Assembly: GCA_002699085.1 (NCBI GenBank)
Contig: PAAR01000029.1
Location: 1,249-65,248, forward strand
Direction: 5' to 3'
Source: Micavibrio sp.
GTDB lineage: Bacteria; Pseudomonadota; Alphaproteobacteria; Micavibrionales; UBA9664
DNA: 64,000 bases
Part shown: positions 33,294 to 63,582 of the stretch, piece by piece
Position numbering within the stretch: position 1 is the first letter of the stretch
Layout of the letters: the number at the start of each line of letters is the position of its first letter
Notes under the pieces: generated by a model
Told to the model about the DNA's origin: nothing
The model's input: the letters and a program-made list of their open reading frames with translations, nothing else
The model's database searches: none
Program-made: the position numbers and the translations under genes

Positions 33294-35177
33294 ATGGTGT
33301 GTATAAATAAGGCAGCTTGTCTGCTTTTAGCTTTTTTACTAGCTTTATTACCAAGTTTTGCGGCATATGCCGAAGCAGGGTACACGCCCATTCCTCGCTA
33401 TGCGCAGCATGATAATGCAAATCAGCAAAATCAACCGCGCCCTTATATTGATTACCAACCTTCTCCCGCATATGAAAAAGCAGTAGAGAAACTAAGGCAA
33501 CAAACACCTCAAGCTACACAAGCAAATATTGTACCCGCCCAATATATACCGGCACAAGCTGAAGGTGCCCAAAATGATGTTTATGGCTATCAATTACCCG
33601 GTGCACTTTCTGGTTACAGCAACATAGCAAGTAAAGCTGTTTCTGCACTTCAAGAATTTTTTAGCTTTATTCTAGAAACATTGCAGGTCGTTTTTGGCTT
33701 CTTAGATAATAGTACACAAGACGAAGTTGCCAATAACTCACAAGCTGCTGACAAGCTTCAAACCGAAGCAATGGCAACAGATTCCTTTTATGCGACACGT
33801 GATGCAGCAATACTCGACGCGCAACAAAGCGATAACATACATAGAGCTATGGAAAAGGACGCTTTTAACGCTAAACTGCCTCTTGACGTTGCCTTTAATT
33901 CAGGACTTGTCGGCTTAATGTGTAGAGACAATTCTACACGTCAAGGCGTCTCTGCGGCTTTGGTCGCTGGAAAGGTCACCGTTGAAGGATTGGCTGAAAT
34001 TCAATCTGATAAAAATGCTCAAACCTCGACTGGTTCATATAGTGCCGCTAGCGGTGGCGGCGGTGGTGGCGGCGGTACAGGCCCAGATGATTCTGGCAAC
34101 CCAGATGATTCATCTGATGCTAGTAACAAAGAAAATATCATCAATGAAGGACCTGGTGCGGCTGGACCATTAGATGAGATCAATGATCGCTGGGGTACGG
34201 TGCTTCTATTCTGTAACCCAGGTGACCCAAAAGTTGAGAAATCTGGCGATATGAATGGGGCAGCAAAAGCATTTTGTCCAGCAACCTGTTCTGAAGGCCA
34301 AGGTGCTAAATGTAATTACGTTGCCAAAGCCTATAAAGATGCCGCTGGCCGTGATATGCCTGGCTTACTGCCGCCAATTAACGCAAGAGACAGAAAAACA
34401 GGCGGTGCAGGCTCTTTCAAAAAAGACAATACGATTTATAACATGGATACGAGCTATTATAAGGCAATTAATGGTCGTAAAACATGGGGATTAGGCTATT
34501 ACCTGCACATGAATGAAGCTACTGGTAAAGCCGATAAATGGCAAAAAAGATCTTTAGCTTCAGATGAGGCAATCGCCGAATTCTTTTTACAAAATGTTTT
34601 CCGGACGGCAGTAACACCTTTACCACGAAACGTGATTGAGGAATCTATTGACGAAGATACTGGATTACCCAGTCTTGAAGCTGTTGAGTTTTTACTTAAC
34701 CATAAAAGTCTATCAGCACAACGCAGTGTGGCGCAAAATGTCTTTATTAACCAGATCGCTTATAAAAGACCATCACCAGTTGAAAATAGATATTTATTTG
34801 ATCAAGCACAGGACATTCTTCTAGGTAACAAACTTAATGATCCATCAGCAGACAAGCCTCAAGATGCCTATGAGAATTACAAACTTGAAATCATGGGCGA
34901 CCCTAATAAGAAACAAGGGCCTAGCTATGAAGCACAGTTAGAATATTTGGCAAAATTGGTCTATTTGAATCCGGATTTTATTATCTCAAAAGCTCCAGAA
35001 GATTTTGAAAATAAAATGCAGCTCATGGCAGCTACTAAAAATATTGTAACTTACGATCTTCTTGAAAGCATGAAACGTCAAGAAGCTGTGATGGCCACTA
35101 TATTAGAAGTGCTCCTGACACCAAAACAACGTGAGTTAGAAGAAAAAAGCGAATTAATATCACAAGGTGGCCAATGA
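33294..35177 (+). CDS. secreted protein of unknown function, paralog A (T4BSS/pilus-associated)
   Basis: Signal peptide MVCINKAACLLLAFLLALLPSFAAYAEA. It shares several collinear blocks with the next ORF, e.g. PSYEAQLEYLAKLVYLNPDF...RQEAVMATILEVLLTPKQRELEE. Confidence 0.7.
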   Translation: MVCINKAACLLLAFLLALLPSFAAYAEAGYTPIPRYAQHDNANQQNQPRPYIDYQPSPAYEKAVEKLRQQTPQATQANIVPAQYIPAQAEGAQNDVYGYQLPGALSGYSNIASKAVSALQEFFSFILETLQVVFGFLDNSTQDEVANNSQAADKLQTEAMATDSFYATRDAAILDAQQSDNIHRAMEKDAFNAKLPLDVAFNSGLVGLMCRDNSTRQGVSAALVAGKVTVEGLAEIQSDKNAQTSTGSYSAASGGGGGGGGTGPDDSGNPDDSSDASNKENIINEGPGAAGPLDEINDRWGTVLLFCNPGDPKVEKSGDMNGAAKAFCPATCSEGQGAKCNYVAKAYKDAAGRDMPGLLPPINARDRKTGGAGSFKKDNTIYNMDTSYYKAINGRKTWGLGYYLHMNEATGKADKWQKRSLASDEAIAEFFLQNVFRTAVTPLPRNVIEESIDEDTGLPSLEAVEFLLNHKSLSAQRSVAQNVFINQIAYKRPSPVENRYLFDQAQDILLGNKLNDPSADKPQDAYENYKLEIMGDPNKKQGPSYEAQLEYLAKLVYLNPDFIISKAPEDFENKMQLMAATKNIVTYDLLESMKRQEAVMATILEVLLTPKQRELEEKSELISQGGQ

Positions 35178-36745
35178 TGAAGCACACATTTCATCATGGA
35201 TTACTATGCCTCACCCTTGTTTTTATGATGGCCTTTGTGCCTGTTGCACAAGCCTATGCGGCCGGTAATTACACCTCTTTCCAAACATTAAAAGAGGAAG
35301 AGAAACCGACGAAACAAGGCGTTGTATATAAATATGATGAATGTCCTCATAAAACGGAAAATGGGGAATGCGCCCAATCACCTAATGCAAAACCTGTTTT
35401 TTATACCACAGCAGCTAATGTTATTAGCGGTGGTATTGCTATTATGCAGCTTCTTACTGAACTTCTTGGTGAGTTCTTCAAAAAGGTTATCATTAAAGGC
35501 CTTATAAGTTTTCTTACTAACATTGTGACAACATTTTTCAGCTTCTTGACCGATTTATTTGATTTTAAGTCGCAGGCCTTGCGTCAAAATGAATCGAAGC
35601 GTCAAAATGAGAAACTGGCTTTTGAAGCGCTTAATAAAACACGCGAAGCCGCTTTACAAGATTCCATACATAGTCGTGCAATCCACGATAGCCTAGAAAA
35701 AGACGTTTTCAATGCGACAAAAGATACTGGTCTTTCTGAACAAAGTGGTGAAATGGCCCTGCAATGTAAGATTAATACGCAATATAAATACCAATCTAGT
35801 GCCTTTGCGACCTCCGTTAATACAGCAACCATCAATGCTGATAAAATGGCCGACAATGCTGGCGCCCAAGAAGGACCTCTGGAGAACCTTGTAAGAAGAG
35901 CAAAAGACTGTCTTAACTACAGCGAAAATGATCTTAATGGCAGTGTTTCAAAATATGTTGAAGAATGTAAAGCAAAATACGGCGCCGCTATAATTGCCAA
36001 AATTAATGCCGACGCTTTACAAGGAGAAAGCACAGATTTCCACTCTAAATGTGATGACGGCGATGATCTTAGCATTACTAATTTTATAACCAACCCTACC
36101 TATATTGAGCAAGAAGACCCAGGTTGTGGCAAACCAAATACTGGCGCAGAAGAAAAATATAAGCTCAAGGGATTCATAGATCACTATACTGGTGAGCGGG
36201 CAACTACACCCATCACGGAACAGGCCATCAAAGACAGCTATAACGAGGAAACTGGCATGTTGGGTCAAAATGAAATTGAATATATCTTAGAAAAGAAAAC
36301 ATTCGACTCGCTTACCTCAATTGTTGATAACTCGCTCAACCATCTTTTAGCCAAAGACAAAGAACCCGTTCTGCGTAGCAATAACGACGGAGAAAGACAA
36401 TTCTTAACCAATGAAATTAAAGAGATCATTGGTGATGAAGGCGCAACTGACAAAAAATATGCTGCGTATACAGGTAATGAAAACTATTTACCCAGCTATG
36501 AAGGGCAGTTGCAGTTCTTGGCCAAAATCCAATATACAAACCCTGCTTTTGAATCAACTAACTTTAGTAAGCTAGGTTATGAAGGCGGGATGCTAAGAAA
36601 GAGTGCCACAGAGAGCATGGTTTTATACGATGCCCTTCAATCAGCGCAGCGCCAAGAAGCTATAATGGCAGCTATTCTGGAAGTCCTCCTGCAGCCAAAA
36701 CAAGAAGAGCTTGAAGAATTGTCCGCAGAGTTAAGCGGCAATTAA
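35174..36745 (+). CDS. secreted protein of unknown function, paralog B
   Basis: Signal peptide ...FMMAFVPVAQAYAAG. ATGA start/stop overlap with paralog A. Shared blocks include PSYEGQLQFLAKIQYTNPAF...RQEAIMAAILEVLLQPKQEELEE. Confidence 0.7.
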   Translation: MMKHTFHHGLLCLTLVFMMAFVPVAQAYAAGNYTSFQTLKEEEKPTKQGVVYKYDECPHKTENGECAQSPNAKPVFYTTAANVISGGIAIMQLLTELLGEFFKKVIIKGLISFLTNIVTTFFSFLTDLFDFKSQALRQNESKRQNEKLAFEALNKTREAALQDSIHSRAIHDSLEKDVFNATKDTGLSEQSGEMALQCKINTQYKYQSSAFATSVNTATINADKMADNAGAQEGPLENLVRRAKDCLNYSENDLNGSVSKYVEECKAKYGAAIIAKINADALQGESTDFHSKCDDGDDLSITNFITNPTYIEQEDPGCGKPNTGAEEKYKLKGFIDHYTGERATTPITEQAIKDSYNEETGMLGQNEIEYILEKKTFDSLTSIVDNSLNHLLAKDKEPVLRSNNDGERQFLTNEIKEIIGDEGATDKKYAAYTGNENYLPSYEGQLQFLAKIQYTNPAFESTNFSKLGYEGGMLRKSATESMVLYDALQSAQRQEAIMAAILEVLLQPKQEELEELSAELSGN

Positions 36746-36759
36746 GAAAAAACCTCAAA

Positions 36760-37782
36760 TTAAAAAAGACCAGTTTCGCCTAAACCACTATCATCTGTTA
36801 AAGGCACAGGTGCTGCATCATTAAGGGGTGTCGTTGCACGTGGTGCATTGGTTGGTGCTGTCATATTAGCACCTGGAAAACCCGAAAATTGCGCTTCTAA
36901 ATCACCTAAAGACGTCGGAATTTCACGTGGCACGGGTGCTTCATTTCTATTAAGAGGCGCAGGGTCAAGTCGGATGATTTCTCCTGCTTTCGTCACTTCC
37001 ATTCGGCCCGGTTGTACTTTTGTCACACGCGACCCATCAGGCAGCGTTTCATCAACCTTAACTGTACGACGAAAATCGCCATTTTCTTTACTGCCTAAGA
37101 CAGCCTCACAAATACCTGAAAGACAAAAAATTTCTATCCACTCGTAATTAGATGTTACTGCCACGGGTTTTTTCTTCAATGAAGATGACATATCACCTTT
37201 GGCCGCTTTTTCAATCACAGCATCAAGCGCACTTTGTGCTGTTTCATTCGAGTTCAGATTTGGCCGCAACGCATTTTGCAACGCCGCAACTTCATCGACA
37301 GCTGATGCTTTCTGAGCTTTTTGTTCATCTAATTCTTTTAAACGCTGTTCTAATACATCTTCTGTCCCAGGGTATACCTCTGGATAAGCATTAAAACACG
37401 GTACATTAGCCGGCACTTGCTCACATAAACCACGTGGTGGCTGCGGTGTCGTGTAATTTACACCAATACTGGTATAAGCCTTTTGAATCTCACTCACTTG
37501 TTTTTGCCAAGTAATGAGGTTCTCAATTAAAGCAATCTGATATTGCAATGTAATTTTGTCTGCTAAATATTTATTCTGAATCTTGTATTCAGTAAAATTC
37601 TCGGCGTTTAAAACATTGTCTCGATTAAGCTCAGCTTCAATAGGTGGTACTGAAATATCAGGTAATTTTGTTGTAAGACGTTTACTATTCTGAGCATAGG
37701 CATCAGCACTACATAATACCGCCATAACAGCAATAGAACATACTGAAAATTTAAACCATTTTTTATGCCAATGAATATTCAT
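36760..37782 (-). CDS. secreted coiled-coil protein, last gene of pilus operon (PilP-like C-terminal domain?)
   Basis: Signal peptide ...VLCSADAYAQ. The C-terminus VKVDETLPDGSRVTKVQPGRMEVTKAGEIIRL loosely parallels the C-terminus of the PilP-like ORF at 46157. Confidence 0.55.
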   Translation of the reverse strand: MNIHWHKKWFKFSVCSIAVMAVLCSADAYAQNSKRLTTKLPDISVPPIEAELNRDNVLNAENFTEYKIQNKYLADKITLQYQIALIENLITWQKQVSEIQKAYTSIGVNYTTPQPPRGLCEQVPANVPCFNAYPEVYPGTEDVLEQRLKELDEQKAQKASAVDEVAALQNALRPNLNSNETAQSALDAVIEKAAKGDMSSSLKKKPVAVTSNYEWIEIFCLSGICEAVLGSKENGDFRRTVKVDETLPDGSRVTKVQPGRMEVTKAGEIIRLDPAPLNRNEAPVPREIPTSLGDLEAQFSGFPGANMTAPTNAPRATTPLNDAAPVPLTDDSGLGETGLF

Positions 37783-39215: not shown

Positions 39216-40714
39216 GGATCACCACCTGATGTCTGACAGAATACTTTTGTACCGACACCCATCGATTTTGTTACATTCGTCGTCCCTAAAACGTTCATGT
39301 TGCCAGATACATCTAAAGCCCGAGTAACACGCAAATCACTAATGTTGGTATTTGTATCTTCAATAATAGCCTGTAAAACAACAGACCCTGCGGCATTAAC
39401 TGTTTCAAAGGTATTCGTAGCAGCCCCATTTCCAACCATCTGGAAGGCACCGGCATCAACATTAATCGGCTGAGAGCCTGATGCTGCGTTCATATTCATC
39501 GTAAAGGCTGTCACTTTACCAAATTGCGCAGGATCAGCACCCGGTGCCGCTTTACTCACGATAACATCTTGGAATTCTGCTGATGTAAAGGTAACGGCCG
39601 TATTACCTGACCCTTCAACAATAATATCTTCTGCAACAACCGCACCTGTATAAGCCGGTGCCACTGCCGATACATCAAGAAAATCGACATCATTTTGCAC
39701 AAGGATAGCGGGATTTGTAGCGTCCGAGAAATTGACAACCATATTACCGCCGACAATATCACACCCTGCACCAACAACGCCGCCACTGCCGTCAAATGCA
39801 CAACCAGACCCATCAGGACCAATAACAGCATGGTTAATTGATACAGCATTATTAAATTGCGCCATTTGTGAAATATTGAGTGCATTGGCAAAAGTACCCT
39901 CCGTGAAACCTTGTGCCAAAATTTCAGTATTGCCAGCCACCTCCAAACGATCGACAGTCATCGCTTTGGCACCTGTTAAACTATAATTATTCATATCAAG
40001 ATTAGCTTGCATAACATTCGCATCGACAGCTGTCGCTATAGGAATCTTATACAAAACATCACTATTCATAGATTCAGCCTGCGAAATCCTGCCATACGCC
40101 GCCAAATAACCGCCTTCATCCGCATCTGGAACAGAAGTACCCGCCGCGACAAATGGCGCTCTATTGATGCTCCATTGACCAGAAAGACTTGTAATATCGT
40201 TGGGCGTGATAATGCCGCTTGAATAACCCAGTTTAGCACCACCGTAACTCGCAATTTTACGCAAACGTGCATCTGGTATATATGCCGTTCCAGCTGCTGG
40301 ATCTTCACTAATAGTCAAAACTTCAATCGTTAAACCATTTGTAAAATTAGTCCCTAAATTACGAATATAAACAGTAATATCTTGCTGAAACCTATTCGTT
40401 TCTTTAAAGCCTGCCGCTAAAAAATTATCTGTCTTCAATGTTGCTAATGGCACTTCGCCAATATCATTGGTATTAGGAATATTAACAGTCACAATATCCG
40501 AGAAATTAGCGGCAACATAATTTTCTGCAGCTTGCTGTACATCAAGCATTTGAGCTGCAATACGCTGGTTCGAGACACGTACAGCACTATCTTTCAGAAT
40601 AGCCGTTGCTGCTATGCCAACTAATGCCAGAACGCCTACAACGAGCAGAAGCTCTATCAAAGTAAAGCCCTTCTCTCTTTTTAATCGACCTAAATTGCAC
40701 ATTCTCTTATCCAT
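39209..40714 (-). CDS. giant pilin-headed protein 2 (PilV-like putative pilus tip adhesin)
   Basis: Prepilin N-terminus ...RLKREKG/FTLIELLLVVGVLALVG. Motif LYKIPIATAVDANVMQANLDMNNYSL and a terminal Cys pair CQTSGGDPC. TAATG overlap with the upstream ORF. Confidence 0.7.
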   Translation of the reverse strand: MDKRMCNLGRLKREKGFTLIELLLVVGVLALVGIAATAILKDSAVRVSNQRIAAQMLDVQQAAENYVAANFSDIVTVNIPNTNDIGEVPLATLKTDNFLAAGFKETNRFQQDITVYIRNLGTNFTNGLTIEVLTISEDPAAGTAYIPDARLRKIASYGGAKLGYSSGIITPNDITSLSGQWSINRAPFVAAGTSVPDADEGGYLAAYGRISQAESMNSDVLYKIPIATAVDANVMQANLDMNNYSLTGAKAMTVDRLEVAGNTEILAQGFTEGTFANALNISQMAQFNNAVSINHAVIGPDGSGCAFDGSGGVVGAGCDIVGGNMVVNFSDATNPAILVQNDVDFLDVSAVAPAYTGAVVAEDIIVEGSGNTAVTFTSAEFQDVIVSKAAPGADPAQFGKVTAFTMNMNAASGSQPINVDAGAFQMVGNGAATNTFETVNAAGSVVLQAIIEDTNTNISDLRVTRALDVSGNMNVLGTTNVTKSMGVGTKVFCQTSGGDPC

Positions 40715-42747
40715 TAAAACGGTGTCCCCGGGTCAATATCTTCAATTTCAGGACAATCACCTGAACAAACTGCCTCAGGATCGCTACCACTAGCACGCTG
40801 TATATTTGTCAAACCTGAAAAGACAGTATCACCAAACACCTGAACACCCTCGTCCGATACAACATTATCTGCTGTTAATGTTTGGCCATTAGCGACCGTT
40901 AAACGACCCATGATTGTTTCATAGCTATCTGGGCCGATTGTTGCCGCCCCATACAAACCACTACCCTGATCGCCCAATACAAAATTTTCAACATTCAAGC
41001 CGTTGGAAAAATTTGCTGACTGAGCGTTAATATTATTACCGTTCACACGGAAGTCACGTACTGTTAAGCCAATATTATCGCTCGTTGATAAGAGTGAGGG
41101 GTCTATATTCATCCCTTCTGGTAATAAAATACTGTTTAATCTGACTACCGTTTGACCCGATGCCTTGGCCGCATCAGCAGAAAGAACCTGCCCATCAACT
41201 GTCGTTCCTTCAGCAATACCAATATTTATTGTGGCATTCGGTGCTTGTAATTCAGGCGTAATAATATTGGCTTGTGAGGCTAATAAATTACCCGATATAC
41301 GCATATAAGATGTACCGCCAGAGCCTGTACTAACACTACCTTGTACATTCACATTCTGGTTAAAATAAGCTTGCTGAATCGGCTGAATATAATTGAAATC
41401 AGGATCATTAAATATTTTAACGTTACTATCAACATTGAGTGAACCACCAAGCGCCACGACATCATCAATATCTCTGTTGCCCGCAATAGCATCAATATTA
41501 ACAGAATCCTCAATACCATTATACGTTTCACCTGCAACAACCACACCTGTAGGCGAACCATCCAAGGTTACACTAACATCCCTTGAGGTAGCGCCATCAA
41601 TAGCTCTATCACGTTGATCTGCCGCTATAATACGCTGAAGCGTTAAATTAGATATATTCATGATATTGCGACGATTATCTGCAAATGTTAATGGGTTATC
41701 TCGTATCGTTGGACACAATCTTGAATCAACCTTTTGAATCCCCCCCGCACCATCATCTTCATTGAAAGCAATTGTGTTTTCGCCACCACCATCACCATAA
41801 TAATTTGGATCACCTACATCCTCTATTGCCACATTTGCTTTACAATTCGCATCCACAACATCACCCATATATAAATCTGTAAGCATTGTCGCATAGGTAG
41901 TATTTTCTGGTTGTGGGAAACGCATAACAGCACGCTCATCAAAACGTACAGACTTCCATGCAGGGATAAGCATTTCACCTGGTTGGAATGCTGCGCCTGT
42001 TAAATTATTAAAATCAGCATCGCTTGTACACCCTGTATCCCATGCTGAGACAGCCGGTGTGCCATTACAATTATCAGAAATATTCACCCCTGCACCGTTA
42101 AATAATGGCGCCGAAACAGGTACTTCTAAATTCTGCAAAACGCGTGATAAACGTATGGCATCACCTGCACTTACAGCTGGCGACCCGCCTAATGTTACAT
42201 AGGCTGTTGCAACAGTTGTTGCTAAATTTGAGTCCCCATCAATAGGTGAGTTTGCTGCATACACAGTAATAGGCTGACGTAGAATCGTGCTTTCAGTTAA
42301 ATCGACCGCATTCGCATCCTGATTAACAAAACTAATCGGTAAATAACCTGCCGCAACTAATTGCGCCACAGTAATTTGTTGAGGTGCGCCCGCTGCATTA
42401 ATATCTAACGCTTGCTTATTGAACTGAGCATCTAATATACCATCCCCATTTTGATCGATCGCATTGGCGATCATATAAGCTAAATCTCTTGGCGTATCTG
42501 GAATATTATCCGCATTTGTATCTTCTACAAATTGTGACAAAGAATTATTACGTACCATAAGTCTTGCAGCCTGTGCGATCTGCTTTATCTGCCATGCCAC
42601 AGCCCGTAAGGTACGTTGATCCCTAGCATCCTTATTTGCGGTTGCAATAAAAGCAATAATAAAGGCAAAAGCGATCGTAATCACAAGCATCACAGCCAGT
42701 GAAAAACCTGATTCTTTCTTTCTGCATTGCTTAATCTGATTTAGCAC
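40714..42747 (-). CDS. giant pilin-headed protein 1 (PilV-like; lacks Glu5)
   Basis: N-terminus ...CRKKESG/FSLAVMLVITIAF, where position 5 is Val rather than Glu. Motif VMRFPQPENTTYATMLTDLYMG and a terminal Cys pair CSGDC. 677 aa. Confidence 0.65.
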   Translation of the reverse strand: MLNQIKQCRKKESGFSLAVMLVITIAFAFIIAFIATANKDARDQRTLRAVAWQIKQIAQAARLMVRNNSLSQFVEDTNADNIPDTPRDLAYMIANAIDQNGDGILDAQFNKQALDINAAGAPQQITVAQLVAAGYLPISFVNQDANAVDLTESTILRQPITVYAANSPIDGDSNLATTVATAYVTLGGSPAVSAGDAIRLSRVLQNLEVPVSAPLFNGAGVNISDNCNGTPAVSAWDTGCTSDADFNNLTGAAFQPGEMLIPAWKSVRFDERAVMRFPQPENTTYATMLTDLYMGDVVDANCKANVAIEDVGDPNYYGDGGGENTIAFNEDDGAGGIQKVDSRLCPTIRDNPLTFADNRRNIMNISNLTLQRIIAADQRDRAIDGATSRDVSVTLDGSPTGVVVAGETYNGIEDSVNIDAIAGNRDIDDVVALGGSLNVDSNVKIFNDPDFNYIQPIQQAYFNQNVNVQGSVSTGSGGTSYMRISGNLLASQANIITPELQAPNATINIGIAEGTTVDGQVLSADAAKASGQTVVRLNSILLPEGMNIDPSLLSTSDNIGLTVRDFRVNGNNINAQSANFSNGLNVENFVLGDQGSGLYGAATIGPDSYETIMGRLTVANGQTLTADNVVSDEGVQVFGDTVFSGLTNIQRASGSDPEAVCSGDCPEIEDIDPGTPF

Positions 42748-54753: not shown

Positions 54754-55884
54754 TTACATACCACCTTTTTTCGCTCCGAAATAACCCATTGGATTTGCTT
54801 TAGGTGGCTTCAAATCTGGATTGACCTTACTTTTCTCTCCGCCACCACGACGCCCTTCTGAACCGTCATCATCTTCATCATCGTCTTTATCTTCACCAAT
54901 AATGGTTTTAGGTTTTGTAGCCCCACCCTTAGAAAAGAACGACATAGGATTGCCTAAAGCAGGTGCTTCTGATTCTTGCACTTTATTTGAGGATGCTTTT
55001 GTTGCTTTTAATGCCTCTTTTGGCGCAGCTTTCTCAGATGAGGAGGCTGACTCATCTTCTGGCGTCACCATTAGATTTTTTGTTAAAGCGACCATCAAGC
55101 CAGAACGCATTTCAAACATATGCCACAAGGTATCAAGTGATAATTCACCCGTTTTATTCATTGATTTTTCACGAAGTTTTTCATCCATTTCTTCATAGCG
55201 ACGTTTTTCCGCCATATGACATGACGCATATATATGCGTCAAACTACGCAAAACACCTAATTCAGAGAGCTTTTGATCGCTTATATCATCGGCACGACCA
55301 AATAAGGCGCGAGCAACAATCTTAGCACGTGATTGTAATTTCGTCGTAATCTCTGCCAGAAGTTCTTTATGGTCATGGCCAAAACTATATTCAGCCACAC
55401 GGATCACCACAGGTAACAACGCCTGCATTGCCTGTATTGTCATTTGATCTTCATCAAACACCAAACGATCAGAGACTGAGATTGGATCAGGGTTAGCCAA
55501 TCTTAAACGACGATTGGCCGCATCTTTTGCTTCTGCAAATTTATCAGTAAAATCTAAAATACCGTCAAAAACATCTGAGAACTGACCAATATCTTCATCA
55601 GATAAATCTTTACCAGTTTTTGCAAAATGCTCAGCTATAATAGGGCTCACCAAACAGGCCACCGCTAAACGCAGTGCATCGGCATCATCATTATTAGAAG
55701 GCTGAAAGCTATCAGATAGGGCCTTGCTCATTTTAATAGACGTACGCAAAAGTGAGGAAATTTGCGCCACATCATCGGCTTCAACAGCACCCTTTTTTTG
55801 ATATGAGCCACGCAACACTGCATTCATTAGCGGCGCAGCTAATTTCTCAAAAACCTTTATATTATAGAGTGTTTTACTATCCAT
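54754..55884 (-). CDS. hypothetical protein (helical N-region, charged low-complexity C-terminus), in dotD operon
   Basis: 376-aa ORF tightly packed between the dsbC-like gene and the SLT gene. The C-terminal tail is DKDDDEDDDGSEGRRGGGEKSKVNPDLKPPKANPMGYFGAKKGGM. No family recognised. Confidence 0.55.
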   Translation of the reverse strand: MDSKTLYNIKVFEKLAAPLMNAVLRGSYQKKGAVEADDVAQISSLLRTSIKMSKALSDSFQPSNNDDADALRLAVACLVSPIIAEHFAKTGKDLSDEDIGQFSDVFDGILDFTDKFAEAKDAANRRLRLANPDPISVSDRLVFDEDQMTIQAMQALLPVVIRVAEYSFGHDHKELLAEITTKLQSRAKIVARALFGRADDISDQKLSELGVLRSLTHIYASCHMAEKRRYEEMDEKLREKSMNKTGELSLDTLWHMFEMRSGLMVALTKNLMVTPEDESASSSEKAAPKEALKATKASSNKVQESEAPALGNPMSFFSKGGATKPKTIIGEDKDDDEDDDGSEGRRGGGEKSKVNPDLKPPKANPMGYFGAKKGGM

Positions 55885-55928: not shown

Positions 55929-56903
55929 TTATCCGTTCAAATCCTTTATAATCGCTGGAATGTCGCCAGGCACACCACGGATAATTTTCACTTCACCAGC
56001 GGCATTACGATAAAACATCATTGGTGTCACATCAAAACCCCACGTATTGATCGTCATTAAATTCCGATCAATCCCTTGCGTATTAACATTTCCAGACTTA
56101 CCAAGATCTTTTGCCTTACCTGTGATATAACTGTAATACAGCGTTTCCGCATCTCCAGCCACCAACATCAACGCCCCTACACGTTTTGTATCAAGCTCAA
56201 AGCCAACAGGCATAACACGCATTTCCAACATGTCATTATCTAAATATGGCTTAAACGCCAACATTGTTTCTTGGCAATGTGGGCAACCAGGATCAATCAT
56301 TGCATAAATCTCAGGCTTTGACACATCCCCAAAACTCACCCAATTAGCATTTTGTAAATCCTGCATTAATTTATCGCTCTTCGTTACTGCTTCAGCAGGC
56401 TCACGGGATGGAGACGGTGTCTTTACTACAGGTGCAGCATCTGCCGCCTTCACTTGTGAAGCAGGTGCTTCCGTATTTTGTAAATTATCTGTAATTTGTT
56501 TTGTCGCCTCAGTCGCCCGTGTCGTACGTTGACGATCTTTAATTAAGCGTGAAACTTCATTAAGCGTATCGAAACTATCTTCACCATCACGAATACGGAA
56601 ATCTTGTAGCTGTTTAAAAGTAAGGTTGTCGCCTTTTTCATTAAACATCATACCTTGAAAATATGTTTTTTGATCCTTTGTTGAGTAGGTAAACGTTGGC
56701 CTTCCCTTATCAAACACAACCCAGCCATCAAAATCTTTATACGGTCCTAAATAGCGAATTTGCGCGCCTTTTTCTTCCATAGGTTTTAATAATTCTGGTG
56801 TTTCTGGCACGACAAGCTTTTCTAATGTTGGCCATTCCTGCGATTGTACTGGCATCGCCAATAATAGAGCTAGAAAGAAACTTGCTAAAAATTTTACACG
56901 CAT
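55929..56903 (-). CDS. periplasmic thiol:disulfide interchange protein (DsbC/DsbG-like; analogous to plasmid TrbB)
   Basis: Signal peptide, thioredoxin-fold motif DPGCPHCQ and an N-terminal extra domain plus an Ala/Pro/Lys-rich linker. Confidence 0.75.
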   Translation of the reverse strand: MRVKFLASFFLALLLAMPVQSQEWPTLEKLVVPETPELLKPMEEKGAQIRYLGPYKDFDGWVVFDKGRPTFTYSTKDQKTYFQGMMFNEKGDNLTFKQLQDFRIRDGEDSFDTLNEVSRLIKDRQRTTRATEATKQITDNLQNTEAPASQVKAADAAPVVKTPSPSREPAEAVTKSDKLMQDLQNANWVSFGDVSKPEIYAMIDPGCPHCQETMLAFKPYLDNDMLEMRVMPVGFELDTKRVGALMLVAGDAETLYYSYITGKAKDLGKSGNVNTQGIDRNLMTINTWGFDVTPMMFYRNAAGEVKIIRGVPGDIPAIIKDLNG

Positions 56904-57060
56904 GGATTATATACTCCTCATTCTGATGCTTTAGAATAGAGTGGCACAGGCAGAACTTCAAGTCATGTTTTACTGGTTTTTAGCAAAACCGATTGTCCTT
57001 GAAATAGCCACAATCTTATCCCATATTATACTATATATTTTAACAAGGAGTTTACGAGAG

Positions 57061-57771
57061 ATGTCACACCCTCAAACACAAGAACAAACCCAAACACTCA
57101 GCCGCTATGATGCTGGCTTGCGTGCACATTTTGCGCGTGTTTATAAAATTATGTGCTTTGGCTTACTAATCACAGGTCTTGTATCCTTTGGTACAGCACA
57201 AGTCCCAGCACTTTTTAATGCCATTCACGGCACATTCTTAGGCATTATTGTTGCTCTATCACCTTTAGCCGTGATTTTCTTTGGACTGAGCCCAAAGCGT
57301 GTTCGTACCATGAGTAATGCTGCTGTCAGCGGCATGTTCTATCTCATGTCTGGCCTCATTGGTCTATCAATGTCGTATATATTTGCGGTTTATTCAGGCA
57401 ACTCTATTGCACGTGTATTCTTCATTACCGCAGGTATGTTTGGGACAATGTCACTATGGGGCTATACAACAAAACGTGATTTAAGTGCGATGGGCTCATT
57501 CCTGTTCATGGGTATGATCGGTCTTATTATCGCTTCTGTAGTAAACATTTTCCTGCACTCTACCATGATGCAGTTAATTGTGTCAGCAGCAGGTGTATTG
57601 ATCTTCACCTTAATGATTGCCTTTGATACCCAGCGTATCAAGGAAATGTATAATTCAATGGATAGCGAATCAGCGCTCCACAAACTGGCCGTGATGAGTG
57701 CTCTAAGTCTATACTTAGATGTCATCAATCTATTCCAGTTCTTATTACAATTCCTCGGCAACAGAAATTAA
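57061..57771 (+). CDS. Bax inhibitor-1/YccA family membrane protein
   Basis: Seven-TM pattern and the C-terminal IAFDTQRIKEMY motif. ATG 57061 with an AAGGAG RBS is preferred over the longer ORF. Confidence 0.85.
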   Translation: MSHPQTQEQTQTLSRYDAGLRAHFARVYKIMCFGLLITGLVSFGTAQVPALFNAIHGTFLGIIVALSPLAVIFFGLSPKRVRTMSNAAVSGMFYLMSGLIGLSMSYIFAVYSGNSIARVFFITAGMFGTMSLWGYTTKRDLSAMGSFLFMGMIGLIIASVVNIFLHSTMMQLIVSAAGVLIFTLMIAFDTQRIKEMYNSMDSESALHKLAVMSALSLYLDVINLFQFLLQFLGNRN

Positions 57772-57829: not shown

Positions 57830-58915
57830 TCATGATAAAATTTTAGCTTTCAAAAAACGTGCCTCTTCTTCCCAATTATGCCTGTATTTCTCACGTTTCA
57901 ACTTATTGTTAAAGTATTGGACACTATCTCCTTGCGACTGATCAGACATAGAAAAACCATATAAATTTACGTTATTCTCAGAAAAAGAGCCTCTGATTTT
58001 CCTAAGCCAGTACAAGATCAGAAGTCCCGCACTAGGTGGATAGTCTAAAGCGACAGCTAGTTCAGAATATATTCGAGCTGGAATGCAAGCTGTTGGCACG
58101 CCTGCCTCAACTGCCTCAATAATATCTAACCCTGTTGAGTGATACCTCTTATCAGGGCCACTAAAGACAATCAAATCATAGTTTGACATGGGTCTACGCC
58201 AAATATCCATATACTTTCCTGCTCGTACCCAAATATTAGTCTTTTTGCCATAGTCTTTAGTATATTCATGCTCAATGCTATAATTATTAAACCGTATAAC
58301 AATATCATGAGAATCTATTTCATCACCTTTTCCGCTACCGATCCCTATCGGTGAGTTTCCGACAATTGCTATTGATGCATCACTCCTAGCTATAGCCTCA
58401 AATTTTCCTTCATCTCTCCGTGTTCTCTGCATAACTTTATGGCATATTTCAGCAAAAGATCCGTCGCATTGATTGGTCTTATATAAATAATCAACCAGCC
58501 CTATTGGTAAACTCGTAAAAGGTGGGGTTGCTTCATAAAGAAATCCCTGCCCTGACTCAGCGAAAATAGATGCCTGTAAGCGTTCTAGCGTAATAAGATT
58601 TTTCCAATTTCCTTTGTAAATTCTTATCAAATCTTTGGCACATGCTAAAGTTTCATGACCATGACCGTGAACGTGCCAATATTCTCTCAGTAAATATTCT
58701 GCGGCTTTTATATCGAAATAAGCAATCTTGCTCGCTTCGTTCAAATGAACAGAAATAGGCTGTGCATCATTTTTCTCTAAAAAATCTTTCCAAGAAAGAA
58801 CATAATCTTCACCCGTCTTTTTACTTAAAGCTTTTCTTTGACTGTTCTTAATAGCATCAATAAAGAACAAATGCGGTGATTCTACCAACTTTTTTAATTT
58901 TCTAGTTCTGCTCAT
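57830..58915 (-). CDS. eukaryote-like glycosyltransferase family 29 (sialyltransferase-like) protein
   Basis: Sialyl motif L-like IAIVGNSPIGIGSGKGDEIDSHDIVIRFNN, motif S-like PSAGLLILYWLRK...VNLYGFS and a C-terminal HNWEEE (VS-like). Confidence 0.7.
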   Translation of the reverse strand: MSRTRKLKKLVESPHLFFIDAIKNSQRKALSKKTGEDYVLSWKDFLEKNDAQPISVHLNEASKIAYFDIKAAEYLLREYWHVHGHGHETLACAKDLIRIYKGNWKNLITLERLQASIFAESGQGFLYEATPPFTSLPIGLVDYLYKTNQCDGSFAEICHKVMQRTRRDEGKFEAIARSDASIAIVGNSPIGIGSGKGDEIDSHDIVIRFNNYSIEHEYTKDYGKKTNIWVRAGKYMDIWRRPMSNYDLIVFSGPDKRYHSTGLDIIEAVEAGVPTACIPARIYSELAVALDYPPSAGLLILYWLRKIRGSFSENNVNLYGFSMSDQSQGDSVQYFNNKLKREKYRHNWEEEARFLKAKILS

Positions 58916-59017
58916 AATAACTTCTTTTTATTATGGAATAAAAATATACCATTTTGGGATAATCCTAGAATGGGTTTATCGCTTTCATTTGGCCTTAGCA
59001 AGAAAAAAGTTAAGAAA

Positions 59018-59248
59018 ATGAAATCAATATATAAGAAAAACTATCAGAAACTAACAGCACTTCTTGTCGCAGCACGCAAACAAACAGGTATAACACAGCA
59101 AGCTTTAGCGGAAGCCTTAAACAAACCGCAATCTTATATTGCAAAAATTGAGAACAATGAAAGACGCCTCGATATTATTGAATTTATGATGATATGCGAA
59201 GCCTTAAACATTCAATACCAGAATATATTAGAACAACTAAAGGAATGA
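59018..59248 (+). CDS. XRE-family helix-turn-helix transcriptional regulator
   Basis: HTH LVAARKQTGITQQALAEALNKPQSYIAKIENNERRLDIIEF. ATG 59018 is preferred. Confidence 0.75.
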   Translation: MKSIYKKNYQKLTALLVAARKQTGITQQALAEALNKPQSYIAKIENNERRLDIIEFMMICEALNIQYQNILEQLKE

Positions 59249-59463
59249 ACTTTTTTATCGTTAAAGCGTTGTTTGATAGAACTATTAAAGTAATACAGAA
59301 AGAAAGAGACTATATGACAGACGTTACACATATAACAGACAAGAACAATAAAGGTGAATGGCAAGTACAGAAATTATGTACGGACGTTAAAGACTATGAG
59401 CTATCAATCGAAAAGCAAAAAACAGATTGGCAATGCGAGCAACGCCGTGAAAGCTGGAAATGA
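59245..59463 (+). CDS. hypothetical small protein, ATGA-coupled to XRE regulator
   Basis: 72-aa ORF whose ATG overlaps the regulator's TGA. No motif recognised. Confidence 0.35.
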   Translation: MNFFIVKALFDRTIKVIQKERDYMTDVTHITDKNNKGEWQVQKLCTDVKDYELSIEKQKTDWQCEQRRESWK

Positions 59464-62396: not shown

Positions 62397-63119
62397 CTAA
62401 CGACCAAAACTATTTAAATAATAGTCCTTATTATCAGCACTTTTACGATCCAAACGCCTTGAAAACGCTTGTGATTTCTCATCACCCTCAAATGGAACAG
62501 TAACACGTATCATTGTGCGGCCCATTATATCCTGATCAAGCTCTATATCAAATAAACTGAAGACCCCTGATTCTTTTATATCAGCTCTCGATCGTTTAGC
62601 TGCAAACTCTTTACCCATACCTGATCTAAAAATTATTCCAGAACGTTTCTGTCCCAGTTTTGGCAAAGGAGAATGTTGATAAAGTTTTCGATTAAACAGA
62701 AAAGCCAGCGGTGTCGTAATGCGCCACCGTTCAGTGCGTATTGTATTCATAAATAATGTGTGCGCTTCATCTAAATCATCCGCACTCATACGGTCAAAGC
62801 CCAGTGCAATCTTTCGCCCATCTACTTCACCATGCGCTTTGCAATATACCCAGCAAGATGTCCCTGAACCCGCCTCAACAAAAAGCTTTTTAGGGGCAAA
62901 TTTTTTCAGCATATCCGTAGAATCTTTTCCATCCATTAAAGTGCGCATCATCGCTTCAGCAATCATAGACTTGCCACCACCTGACGTCCCGCCGATTGTA
63001 ATCATAGGGATTTTATCTTGATCTAAAAGCAGCTCTTTTGGTATGCATGCGGCAATCATCGCTGACAACTGAATAAGTTGCTCTCGTCCCCTCACCTCAA
63101 AATTAAATACTTTTCTCAT
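62397..63119 (-). CDS. hypothetical P-loop NTPase
   Basis: 240-aa ORF with a Walker A-like GGTSGGGKS. Nothing else recognisable. Confidence 0.45.
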   Translation of the reverse strand: MRKVFNFEVRGREQLIQLSAMIAACIPKELLLDQDKIPMITIGGTSGGGKSMIAEAMMRTLMDGKDSTDMLKKFAPKKLFVEAGSGTSCWVYCKAHGEVDGRKIALGFDRMSADDLDEAHTLFMNTIRTERWRITTPLAFLFNRKLYQHSPLPKLGQKRSGIIFRSGMGKEFAAKRSRADIKESGVFSLFDIELDQDIMGRTMIRVTVPFEGDEKSQAFSRRLDRKSADNKDYYLNSFGR

Positions 63120-63213
63120 TACTACAAACGACCTCTACTCAAAGTCATTGTATCAAATAGCTTCTTAAAATATTCTTAACTATGTCAATAAATACAAATA
63201 AATATTTAGATAC

Positions 63214-63289
63214 TGGTGGACCCGATCAGTCTCGAACTGACGACCTCTTCACTGCCAGCGAAGCGCTCTACCAACTGAGCTACGGGCCC
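63214..63289 (-). tRNA. tRNA-Ala (anticodon GGC)
   Basis: The reverse complement GGGCCCGTAGCTCAGTTGGTAGAGCGCTTCGCTGGCAGTGAAGAGGTCGTCAGTTCGAGACTGATCGGGTCCACCA folds as a 76-nt cloverleaf. Anticodon loop CTGGCAG, G3:U70 alanine identity pair, encoded CCA. Confidence 0.92.
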
Positions 63290-63582
63290 GTACATGAAAT
63301 ATGTATGCCTATTTTTATTAATAGAGGCTATTTAGAAAGTAAAGTCCCTATCGTTAAAGATTTTAATTGTGCTTTTTAGCAAAGCTGTATATCGTCATTT
63401 TTAAGGAATTCTCTTTGAGAGTTGGGTCGGCTGATCTCGCCGTAGCGAATAAATCCCAGCTTTATAAGGAGCATTAAAGAATTAACACGCTGCCTCAAAG
63501 GTTTTTCGTGTTTATAGAGCCGTATTTTTAATTTTGCCTATAAACAAACTTTTCTGGCGCGATACATAAGGAGAATTGAGCA
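63290..63582 (+). promoter_or_regulatory. putative promoter and long 5' leader of rne
   Basis: ~290-nt non-coding region ending in an AAGGAG RBS 9 nt before the ATG. A regulatory role is inferred by analogy with rne leaders. Confidence 0.35.

Follow-up and report, generated by a model that had tools for sequence, protein, structure and literature searches.

We analyzed a stretch of 64,000 nucleotides (the window) from contig PAAR01000029.1 of Micavibrio sp. (assembly GCA_002699085.1), and in particular one open reading frame (ORF) whose product is related to the sialyltransferases of glycosyltransferase family 29 (GT29). The protein is 100% identical to the hypothetical protein CMH30_09060 from Micavibrio sp., and it is also present on GCA_002358745.1. 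The gene is monocistronic: it converges with a Bax1-I/YccA-type gene on one side and diverges from an XRE-type helix-turn-helix (HTH) gene on the other. Given these neighbors, it lies outside the operon of a nearby type IVB secretion system (T4BSS). The original prediction for this gene was a eukaryote-like sialyltransferase, which might have been acquired from a host or might be injected into a host to modify its glycans. The features of the locus are listed in Table 1.

Table 1. Features of the GT29 gene and its surroundings, with positions in the window
Feature	Position	Strand	Evidence or remarks
Complete GT29-like ORF	57830..58915	minus	ATG start, 361 amino acids plus stop; ORF list and PF00777
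All-alpha N-terminal domain with helical repeats (tetratricopeptide repeat (TPR)-like), residues 1-177	58385..58915	minus	AlphaFold, profile, fusions in relatives
Basic motif, residues 5-21 (RKLKKLVESPHLFFIDA), candidate for a peripheral membrane anchor or for a tag of capsule enzymes	58853..58903	minus	Regular expression and NeuS match
GT29 catalytic domain, residues 178-361, GT-A variant fold	57833..58384	minus	Foldseek and ST3Gal-I profile match
Sialyl motif L, residues 182-229, binding of the cytidine monophosphate (CMP)-sugar donor	58229..58372	minus	IAIVGNSP...EIDSHDIVIRFNN...DYGKKTNIW; aligns to ST8SiaIII and ST3Gal-I
Sialyl motif S, residues 294-321 (PSAG...LYGF)	57953..58036	minus	Aligns to PSTG...YGF of ST3Gal-I
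Motif III variant QYFN, residues 333-336	57908..57919	minus	His to Gln at the first position
Motif VS, residues 346-351 (HNWEEE, H-x4-E), predicted catalytic base His346	57863..57880	minus	His and Glu align with those of motif VS in ST3Gal-I
Bax1-I/YccA-type gene	56941..57771	plus	Between the GT29 gene and the T4BSS-associated operon
XRE-family HTH_3 gene, 92 amino acids	58970..59248	plus	PF01381, E = 1.7e-12; G+C content 0.333; 54 bp from the GT29 start
Chromosomal T4BSS interleaved with an R64/IncI-type thin-pilus cluster	22536-56903		Core genes on both flanks
tRNA-Ala(GGC)	63214-63289	minus	ABC-F, response regulator, and other housekeeping genes between it and the GT29 gene

The C-terminal half of the protein is a genuine GT29 domain. 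It matches Glyco_transf_29 (PF00777 in Pfam) at E = 2e-15, and its 57.4 bits exceed the gathering cutoff, which is 23. No NCBIfam model matches the protein. When PDB sequences were searched with the single sequence, only animal sialyltransferases were found, and only via motif L (ST8SiaIII, E = 0.002). With a profile of the protein and 47 of its relatives, pig ST3Gal-I was matched across motifs L, S, III, and VS (E = 1.2e-18). The AlphaFold model (predicted local distance difference test score (pLDDT) of 82 and predicted template modeling score of 0.82) is all-helical from residue 2 to 177, followed by an alpha/beta domain. In a Foldseek comparison of this model to PDB, the best 30 matches were mammalian GT29 enzymes throughout (probability 1.00, E = 4e-5 to 3e-3), and the first match beyond these had E > 0.03. 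The original prediction was correct about the family, as the HMM search that it proposed is positive. It was also correct about sialyl motifs L, S, and VS, which align to ST3Gal-I and retain the residues that are invariant in the family.

Across 48 members of the family, the invariant residues of motif L are V185, G186, I200, D201, R208, F209, N210, D221, and G223. G297, G320, and F321 of motif S are invariant as well, and P294 is nearly so. H346 and E351 of motif VS are also invariant. The published consensus of motif VS is H-x4-E, and its histidine serves GT29 enzymes as the catalytic base (PMC8433944). Motif III has the published consensus (H/y)-Y-(Y/W/F/h)-(D/E/q/g) (PMC8433944), and about 90 relatives have HYF or HYY. 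Compared to the consensus, QYFN retains the tyrosine and the aromatic residue, while the first and last positions deviate. QYF is confined to four proteins of the family, among them the window protein and, of its closest relatives, P0002 and P0003; P0004 has LYF. Because the glutamine is common to P0002 and P0003 at only 41-55% identity, the alignment makes it look like a conserved trait of a small subclade.

The protein has neither of the traits of the eukaryotic Golgi subset, which are a type II transmembrane anchor and a disulfide between motifs L and S. Its cysteines are at positions 92, 150, 158, and 277, and none of these is a disulfide position of motif L or S. There is no transmembrane segment in the protein (over 19 residues, the Kyte-Doolittle mean peaks at 1.34, within motif S), and no signal peptide. 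The alignment and the hydropathy analysis confirm what had been noted about these features. Of the proposal that the enzyme is cytosolic or injected, the first part fits an enzyme without a transmembrane segment, while the second part finds no support in the loci of its relatives, in its C-terminus, or in its context.

GT29 can no longer be called an overwhelmingly eukaryotic family, as it was in the original prediction. We scanned 1.84 billion cluster representatives (clusters at 50% identity) exhaustively with HMMER and found 1,202 proteins with E <= 1e-3 and 694 with E <= 1e-10. PF00777 is carried by all of the word-indexed homologs (53/53). We also searched one genome of each species with a sequence pattern; the hits, which did not include the window's own genome, gave relatives in at least 84 bacterial species from many phyla. 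These include Prosthecomicrobium, Rhizobium, Pararhizobium, Idiomarina, Helicobacter ganmani, Moraxella nonliquefaciens, and Microbacterium, as well as Melainabacteria/Gastranaerophilales, Clostridia, Spirochaetes, and Verrucomicrobia. Free-living and gut taxa dominate the list, and none of the 84 species belongs to the Legionellales.

A bacterial branch of GT29 has also been described in the literature. Petit et al. (2018) reported that bacterial GT29 proteins carry all four sialyl motifs, without a transmembrane segment and without the disulfide cysteines (PMC5811610). Their set contained 23 sequences, mostly from marine alpha-proteobacteria, and their function was not predictable (PMC5811610). 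The bacterial proteins branch basally, and bacteria were proposed as the origin of eukaryotic GT29 (PMC5811610). The window protein belongs with the bacterial proteins: its bit scores are 80-280 to these relatives versus about 20 to animal enzymes. Its closest relatives (41-55% identity) are found among ordinary bacterial genes, and the five closest ones with readable context are all bacterial. The bacterial affinity rests on this ranking of similarities, on the contexts of the nearest relatives, and on the published phylogeny (PMC5811610).

The genes around these relatives point to surface polysaccharides. We scanned the loci of the relatives, over a range of 8 kb, by using phmmer with seeds drawn from contexts of the P0023, P0003, and P0005 types. 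Homologs of NeuB, CMP-synthetase, PS_pyruv_trans, Capsule_synth, WbqC, or DegT are present in 51 of the 80 species loci, and NeuB or CMP-synthetase is present in 24 of 80. In 12 of the 80 loci, the GT29 region shares one ORF with a pyruvyl-transferase-like or Capsule_synth-like region. Fusions are also common among the 44 long relatives (600 amino acids or more) in the top 150 hits. Capsule_synth (PF05159), which is the family of KpsC/KpsS-type transferases of beta-Kdo (Kdo being 3-deoxy-D-manno-octulosonate), is found in 26 of these, GT2 in 7, PS_pyruv_trans in 6, and GT1 in 3; several contain TPR repeats. Similarly, the K6 capsule locus of E. coli encodes a dual GT29-GT107 protein, whose product is probably poly-Kdo, and both of these families use CMP-ulosonic acids (PMC13171606, 2026).

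Individual loci show the same association. P0023 is encoded in an operon with GT1, GT2, a DegT aminotransferase, WbqC, NeuB, and a CMP-sugar synthetase. The neighbors of P0003 include a Capsule_synth gene and a gene for a polysaccharide pyruvyl transferase. P0005, from Prosthecomicrobium, and the homolog from Prosthecomicrobium hirschii both adjoin a pyruvyl transferase, and P0002 adjoins Polysacc_deac_2. Homologs of the window's T4BSS genes were found in none of 88 loci of relatives, and no relative's locus links it to pilus genes. The original prediction had named beforehand the outcome that would speak against its host-directed reading, namely a well-populated bacterial clade for capsule or lipopolysaccharide (LPS) synthesis with sugar genes nearby in the relatives, and this is what we found (51 of 80 loci). 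P0004 is part of a tandem GT29 pair: the gene directly downstream (L009 3988-6261) encodes a 757-amino-acid protein with weak similarity to GT29 and to pyruvyl transferases.

The N-terminal region of the window protein also resembles capsule enzymes. Its first 21 residues are MSRTRKLKKLVESPHLFFIDA, and they contain the motif KLxKLxxxPxxFFxD. This motif is present in 18 of 199 family proteins, nearly always at residues 3-15, while 0.12 would be expected by shuffling. NeuS of E. coli UTI89 (K1; N-terminus at L091 8413-8484) starts with MIFDASLKKLRKLFVNPIGFFRDS, in which the motif is the stretch KLRKLFVNPIGFFRD, and the motif is absent from all other K1 capsule proteins of this strain. In bacterial polysialyltransferases, the first 20 amino acids are a putative membrane anchor, and their deletion yields a soluble enzyme (PMC5517516). 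The first 35 amino acids of the window protein have a net charge of +8, and its maximal helical hydrophobic moment is at residues 4-15. Since the motif is common to GT38 polysialyltransferases and to many bacterial GT29 proteins, we tentatively suggest that it might be a targeting tag for capsule assembly that is independent of the fold, although we consider this less likely than not. The motif also occurs in ORFs that are adjacent to GT29 genes and are not themselves GT29, in the Helicobacter loci L014 and L016 and also in L019 and L080.

The rest of the N-terminal domain is modeled with a pLDDT of about 80-94 from residue 70. Residues ~60-177 form helical repeats that are common to many relatives, with the shared blocks W..G....L and L.E......A. 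We call the domain TPR-like because the model of the whole protein is all-helical in this part, because the family profile has a weak match to a PPR protein (E = 0.004), and because some relatives are fused to TPRs. TPR domains are frequent in capsule polymerases, where they influence the handling of partners and acceptors (PMC11666461). With its anchor motif, helical domain, and catalytic domain, the architecture of the window protein parallels that of capsule biosynthesis enzymes.

Given the family, the N-terminal region, and the context of the relatives, we propose that the protein is a cytoplasmic, membrane-associated transferase that uses CMP-Kdo or a CMP-nonulosonic acid to build a surface polysaccharide. 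We would give this proposal a probability of roughly 60%. The best explanation for the enzyme class is a metal-independent inverting glycosyltransferase from the bacterial branch of GT29. The C-terminal domain, with its variant of the GT-A fold, would bind a CMP-activated ulosonic acid via motifs L and S. The donor would be CMP-Kdo or the CMP derivative of a nonulosonic acid such as N-acetylneuraminic acid (Neu5Ac), legionaminic acid, or pseudaminic acid. With His346 of motif VS as the predicted catalytic base, the sugar would be added to a growing capsule- or LPS-type glycan of the cell surface. The basic KLxKLxxxPxxFFxD segment may keep the enzyme attached to the cytoplasmic membrane on its inner face, and the all-helical TPR-like domain may handle the recognition of the acceptor or of a partner, as in other capsule polymerases.

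Several observations weigh against this proposal. The gene is an orphan: we looked through the 64-kb window and through 10 kb past each of its ends and found no genes for NeuB, CMP-synthetase, Capsule_synth, a pyruvyl transferase, or a capsule ABC transporter, and none for KpsMT, KpsC/S, or KpsD/E. The protein has a glutamine in place of the usual histidine of motif III. Also, no biochemically characterized bacterial GT29 was found in the searchable literature. Because of the orphan location and the glutamine, the identities of the donor and the acceptor are uncertain; these two features do not favor a host-directed role either. In the 10 kb beyond both ends of the window, we found only housekeeping genes. 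These include LptF and LptG, at 8-10 kb to the left, from which we conclude that the organism makes LPS and presumably has a pool of CMP-Kdo. The orphan gene would work together with glycan genes elsewhere in the genome.

The composition of the gene is mildly unusual. Its G+C content is 0.372, versus a window mean of 0.421 (standard deviation 0.027), so that the shift is less than 2 standard deviations. At third codon positions, the values are 0.298 versus 0.340 (standard deviation 0.037). The codon-usage distance is 0.99 versus 0.90 (standard deviation 0.20), which is within 0.5 standard deviations. The GT29 gene and the HTH_3 gene are the most AT-rich stretch of the neighborhood. It is possible that HTH_3 is a local regulator. 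HTH_3 is followed by an overlapping small gene, which was called as 72 amino acids (58970-59463 for the two together, plus strand), and this pair may be a regulator or may resemble a toxin-antitoxin system. Scans for consensus sites around the GT29 gene were uninformative, with 3 promoter-like sites versus 6.6 expected and 0 terminators. The ORF for the Bax1-I/YccA-type protein is listed from a GTG (276 amino acids), but its Pfam domain begins at residue 62, and an internal methionine (MSHPQTQ...) is a likelier start.

These data bear on a variant of our proposal that differs from it in the origin and the regulation of the gene. The GT29 gene and the divergent HTH gene could be a small mobile accessory or serotype-converting cassette: an AT-rich islet, acquired horizontally, which would modify a surface polysaccharide that is already present. 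The low G+C content of both genes would fit (0.372 and 0.333), as would the tRNA-Ala gene in the window. Relatives are found beside phage genes as well: P0003 is near phage tail and capsule genes, and P0023 is near genes for a phage head-tail connector. On the other hand, we identified no integrase or transposase, and no flanking repeats either, although no search aimed at repeats was made. Housekeeping genes, with ABC-F and a response regulator among them, separate the GT29 gene from the tRNA, and the shift in composition is below 2 standard deviations. Overall, we consider a cassette unlikely, albeit the most plausible of the alternatives. We also considered whether the interval from the T4BSS to the tRNA-Ala is an integrative and conjugative element or another genomic island, and we rejected this, as there is no integrase beside the tRNA and housekeeping genes intervene.

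Some details of these loci should be recorded. The locus of P0003 (L003 1-12711) adjoins phage tail genes (the tape measure TMP_2, and DUF6950), which suggests that it is a phage- or prophage-borne cassette for modifying the capsule. The full nonulosonic-acid operon of P0023 (L007 2527-13810, on a contig of 935 kb) is near a VirB8 gene besides the head-tail connector genes. In the window, the listed ORF of 65 amino acids at 63182-63379 (plus strand) is a spurious translation over the tRNA-Ala(GGC), and the gene beside the tRNA (62397-63119) encodes a P-loop protein of 240 amino acids without a family assignment.

The protein could instead be a remnant that is catalytically impaired or has been repurposed. 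The loss of the histidine from motif III (QYFN instead of HYF(x)) and the orphan location, away from any partners in the pathway, are what a remnant might look like. But the ORF is intact, all of the other invariant residues are kept, and the model is confident. Furthermore, the glutamine is shared with P0002 and P0003, which are only 41-55% identical. A remnant is therefore quite improbable.

Two other alternatives involve the neighboring T4BSS and thin-pilus cluster. Its T4BSS genes encode DotB, DotC, DotD, IcmT, DotI, DotH, DotG, DotN, and a VirB4-like DotO, and there are weak matches to DotF and TraQ. The pilus set is complete, with a PilN-like protein, a secretin, PilO, an ATPase, PilR, the PilS pilin, and two tandem PilV/Shufflon_N proteins. 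IcmS, IcmW, a type IV coupling protein, a relaxase, and an integrase were not recognized in the window. Among plasmids, the best matches of the DotO homolog are megaplasmids of free-living alpha-proteobacteria (38-44% identity), and 3,220 of the 3,780 plasmids that match DotO are predicted to be conjugative.

This cluster also contains several proteins without a clear assignment. The first gene of the T4BSS-associated operon (55929-56903, minus strand) encodes a protein of 324 amino acids, which starts like a signal peptide and has a C-terminal CPHC motif. It has no Pfam match; these sequence features suggest a thiol-disulfide oxidoreductase similar to DsbC or TrbB. Between this gene and the SLT transglycosylase is a gene for a 376-amino-acid protein (54754-55884, minus strand), also without a Pfam match. 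The C-terminal third of this protein is highly acidic and then rich in lysine and glycine, so it is probably disordered. Four large ORFs at 33294-37782 and 40714-42747 (627, 523, 340, and 677 amino acids) match nothing in Pfam or NCBIfam. Two of the four are on the strand opposite to the rest of the cluster.

Given the PilS pilin and the two PilV-like adhesins of this type IVb thin-pilus cluster, we considered whether the GT29 protein is a cytoplasmic protein glycosyltransferase that adds an ulosonic acid to the pilin or to another component of the T4BSS or thin pilus, much as Maf enzymes modify flagellin. The gene is close to the cluster and has no polysaccharide genes around it. However, no relative is linked to pilus genes, and the contexts and fusions of the family indicate the synthesis of polysaccharides. 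Also, the glycosylation of type IV pilins is normally periplasmic. We view pilin glycosylation as very unlikely.

There is even less to be said for the idea that the T4BSS translocates the protein. The enzyme would be injected via the Dot/Icm-like system and would add sialic acid or another ulosonic acid such as Kdo to the glycoconjugates of a host or of prey. The gene was said to be about 1 kb from the T4BSS locus. This holds for the first gene of the T4BSS-associated operon, which starts at 56903 and is about 0.9 kb away, but the nearest recognizable T4BSS genes (SLT and DotD) are 3.1-3.6 kb from the GT29 gene. The lack of a signal peptide and of a transmembrane segment would suit an effector, as would a slightly AT-rich gene that is away from sugar genes. 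Dot/Icm E-block signals lie near the C-terminus, and the protein has an EEE run at about that position (-13 to -11). However, this run is the conserved VS motif within a confidently modeled terminal helix, which speaks against an added signal. The tail after the VS histidine is just 16 amino acids, versus a family median of 19, so there is no extension beyond the norm of the family.

The context of the gene and of the family also argues against an effector. The gene is not in the T4BSS operon, from which the convergent Bax1-I/YccA-type gene separates it. No T4BSS genes were found in any of the 88 loci of relatives, the 84 species include no Legionellales, and the relatives are embedded in or fused to machinery for capsules or nonulosonic acids. 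The N-terminus carries an anchor motif of the type found in capsule polymerases. The T4BSS itself, with its R64-like thin pilus, is of the IncI/R64 class, with no IcmS, IcmW, or coupling protein detected in the window, and its ATPase resembles those from conjugative plasmids of free-living alpha-proteobacteria. If the protein were translocated, it would be the first GT29 effector of this kind, but we see very little chance of that, and the proposal of a host-glycan-modifying effector is not supported. It is most likely a coincidence that the GT29 gene is next to the T4BSS and thin-pilus cluster.

Finally, a recent acquisition of a sialyltransferase gene from a eukaryotic host, which was suggested by the close likeness of the motifs to the animal enzymes and might fit the G+C content of 0.372 versus 0.421 (standard deviation 0.027), is barely credible: the bacterial matches score 80-280 bits versus about 20 for animal enzymes, the five closest relatives whose context could be read come from bacterial genomes, the missing transmembrane segment and cysteines are the published norm for bacterial GT29, which branches basally and is the proposed donor lineage (PMC5811610), and the comparison of composition that was originally suggested finds a normal codon-usage distance (0.99 versus 0.90, standard deviation 0.20) and a G+C content that is only mildly unusual.

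More broadly, one should not take a bacterial GT29 domain as a sign of eukaryotic derivation or of host targeting. There is a large bacterial branch of GT29 that is tied to the chemistry of capsules, Kdo, and nonulosonic acids. As no member of this branch appears to have been characterized biochemically, the window protein, which is small, soluble-looking, and has a single module, could be a good place to start. Through it, one could approach the specificity of the bacterial branch for donors and linkages, as well as the subclade with glutamine in motif III and the NeuS-like N-terminal motif. Such work would bear on the proposed bacterial origin of eukaryotic sialyltransferases.

How does the window protein compare to known systems? 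It has the same fold and catalytic motifs as the mammalian GT29 enzymes, including the histidine and glutamate of motif VS (ST3Gal-I, 2wnb; ST6Gal1, 4js1; ST6GalNAc2, 6apj; ST8SiaIII, 5bo6). But it is just 17-22% identical to them, it has no type II transmembrane stem and no disulfide, it has a glutamine in motif III, and its helical N-terminal domain is a bacterial one. By description, it can also be set beside the GT29-like proteins of plants, which are eukaryotic Golgi enzymes and are believed to accept a CMP-ulosonic acid that is not sialic acid. The proposal for these is that they attach Kdo, or else a related heptulosaric acid, to rhamnogalacturonan-II (cited in PMC5811610).

NeuS and SiaD (GT38) share the motif KLxKLxxxPxxFFxD at the extreme N-terminus, as well as the class of CMP-sugar donor. 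Their catalytic fold (GT-B) is unrelated, and the likeness to the window protein is limited to ~17 N-terminal residues. The Dot/Icm effectors Lgt1-3 and SetA of Legionella are DXD-type, UDP (uridine diphosphate)-glucose-dependent glycosyltransferases with C-terminal translocation signals. They resemble the window protein in being glycosyltransferases that are encoded in a T4BSS-bearing bacterium. In contrast, the window protein is a CMP-sugar GT29 without an extra C-terminal tail, from a family that is not associated with T4BSS organisms.

The GT29-GT107 protein of E. coli K6 places a GT29 domain in an ABC-transporter-dependent capsule locus, where it was proposed to transfer Kdo from CMP-Kdo (PMC13171606). 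This architecture of GT29 with Capsule_synth (KpsC/S-type) recurs in 26 of our 44 long relatives, while the window protein has a single module, with a helical N-terminal domain instead of a fused Kdo-transferase domain, and is outside of a capsule locus. The bacterial GT29 proteins of Petit et al. are like the window protein in motifs L, S, III, and VS and in having no transmembrane segment and no L-S cysteines (PMC5811610), and Idiomarina sequences occur both in their set and in ours. The window protein comes from an uncultured marine metagenome-assembled genome, labeled Micavibrio sp. at NCBI, that is absent from the main text of that paper, and it belongs to a small subclade that has glutamine in place of the motif III histidine.

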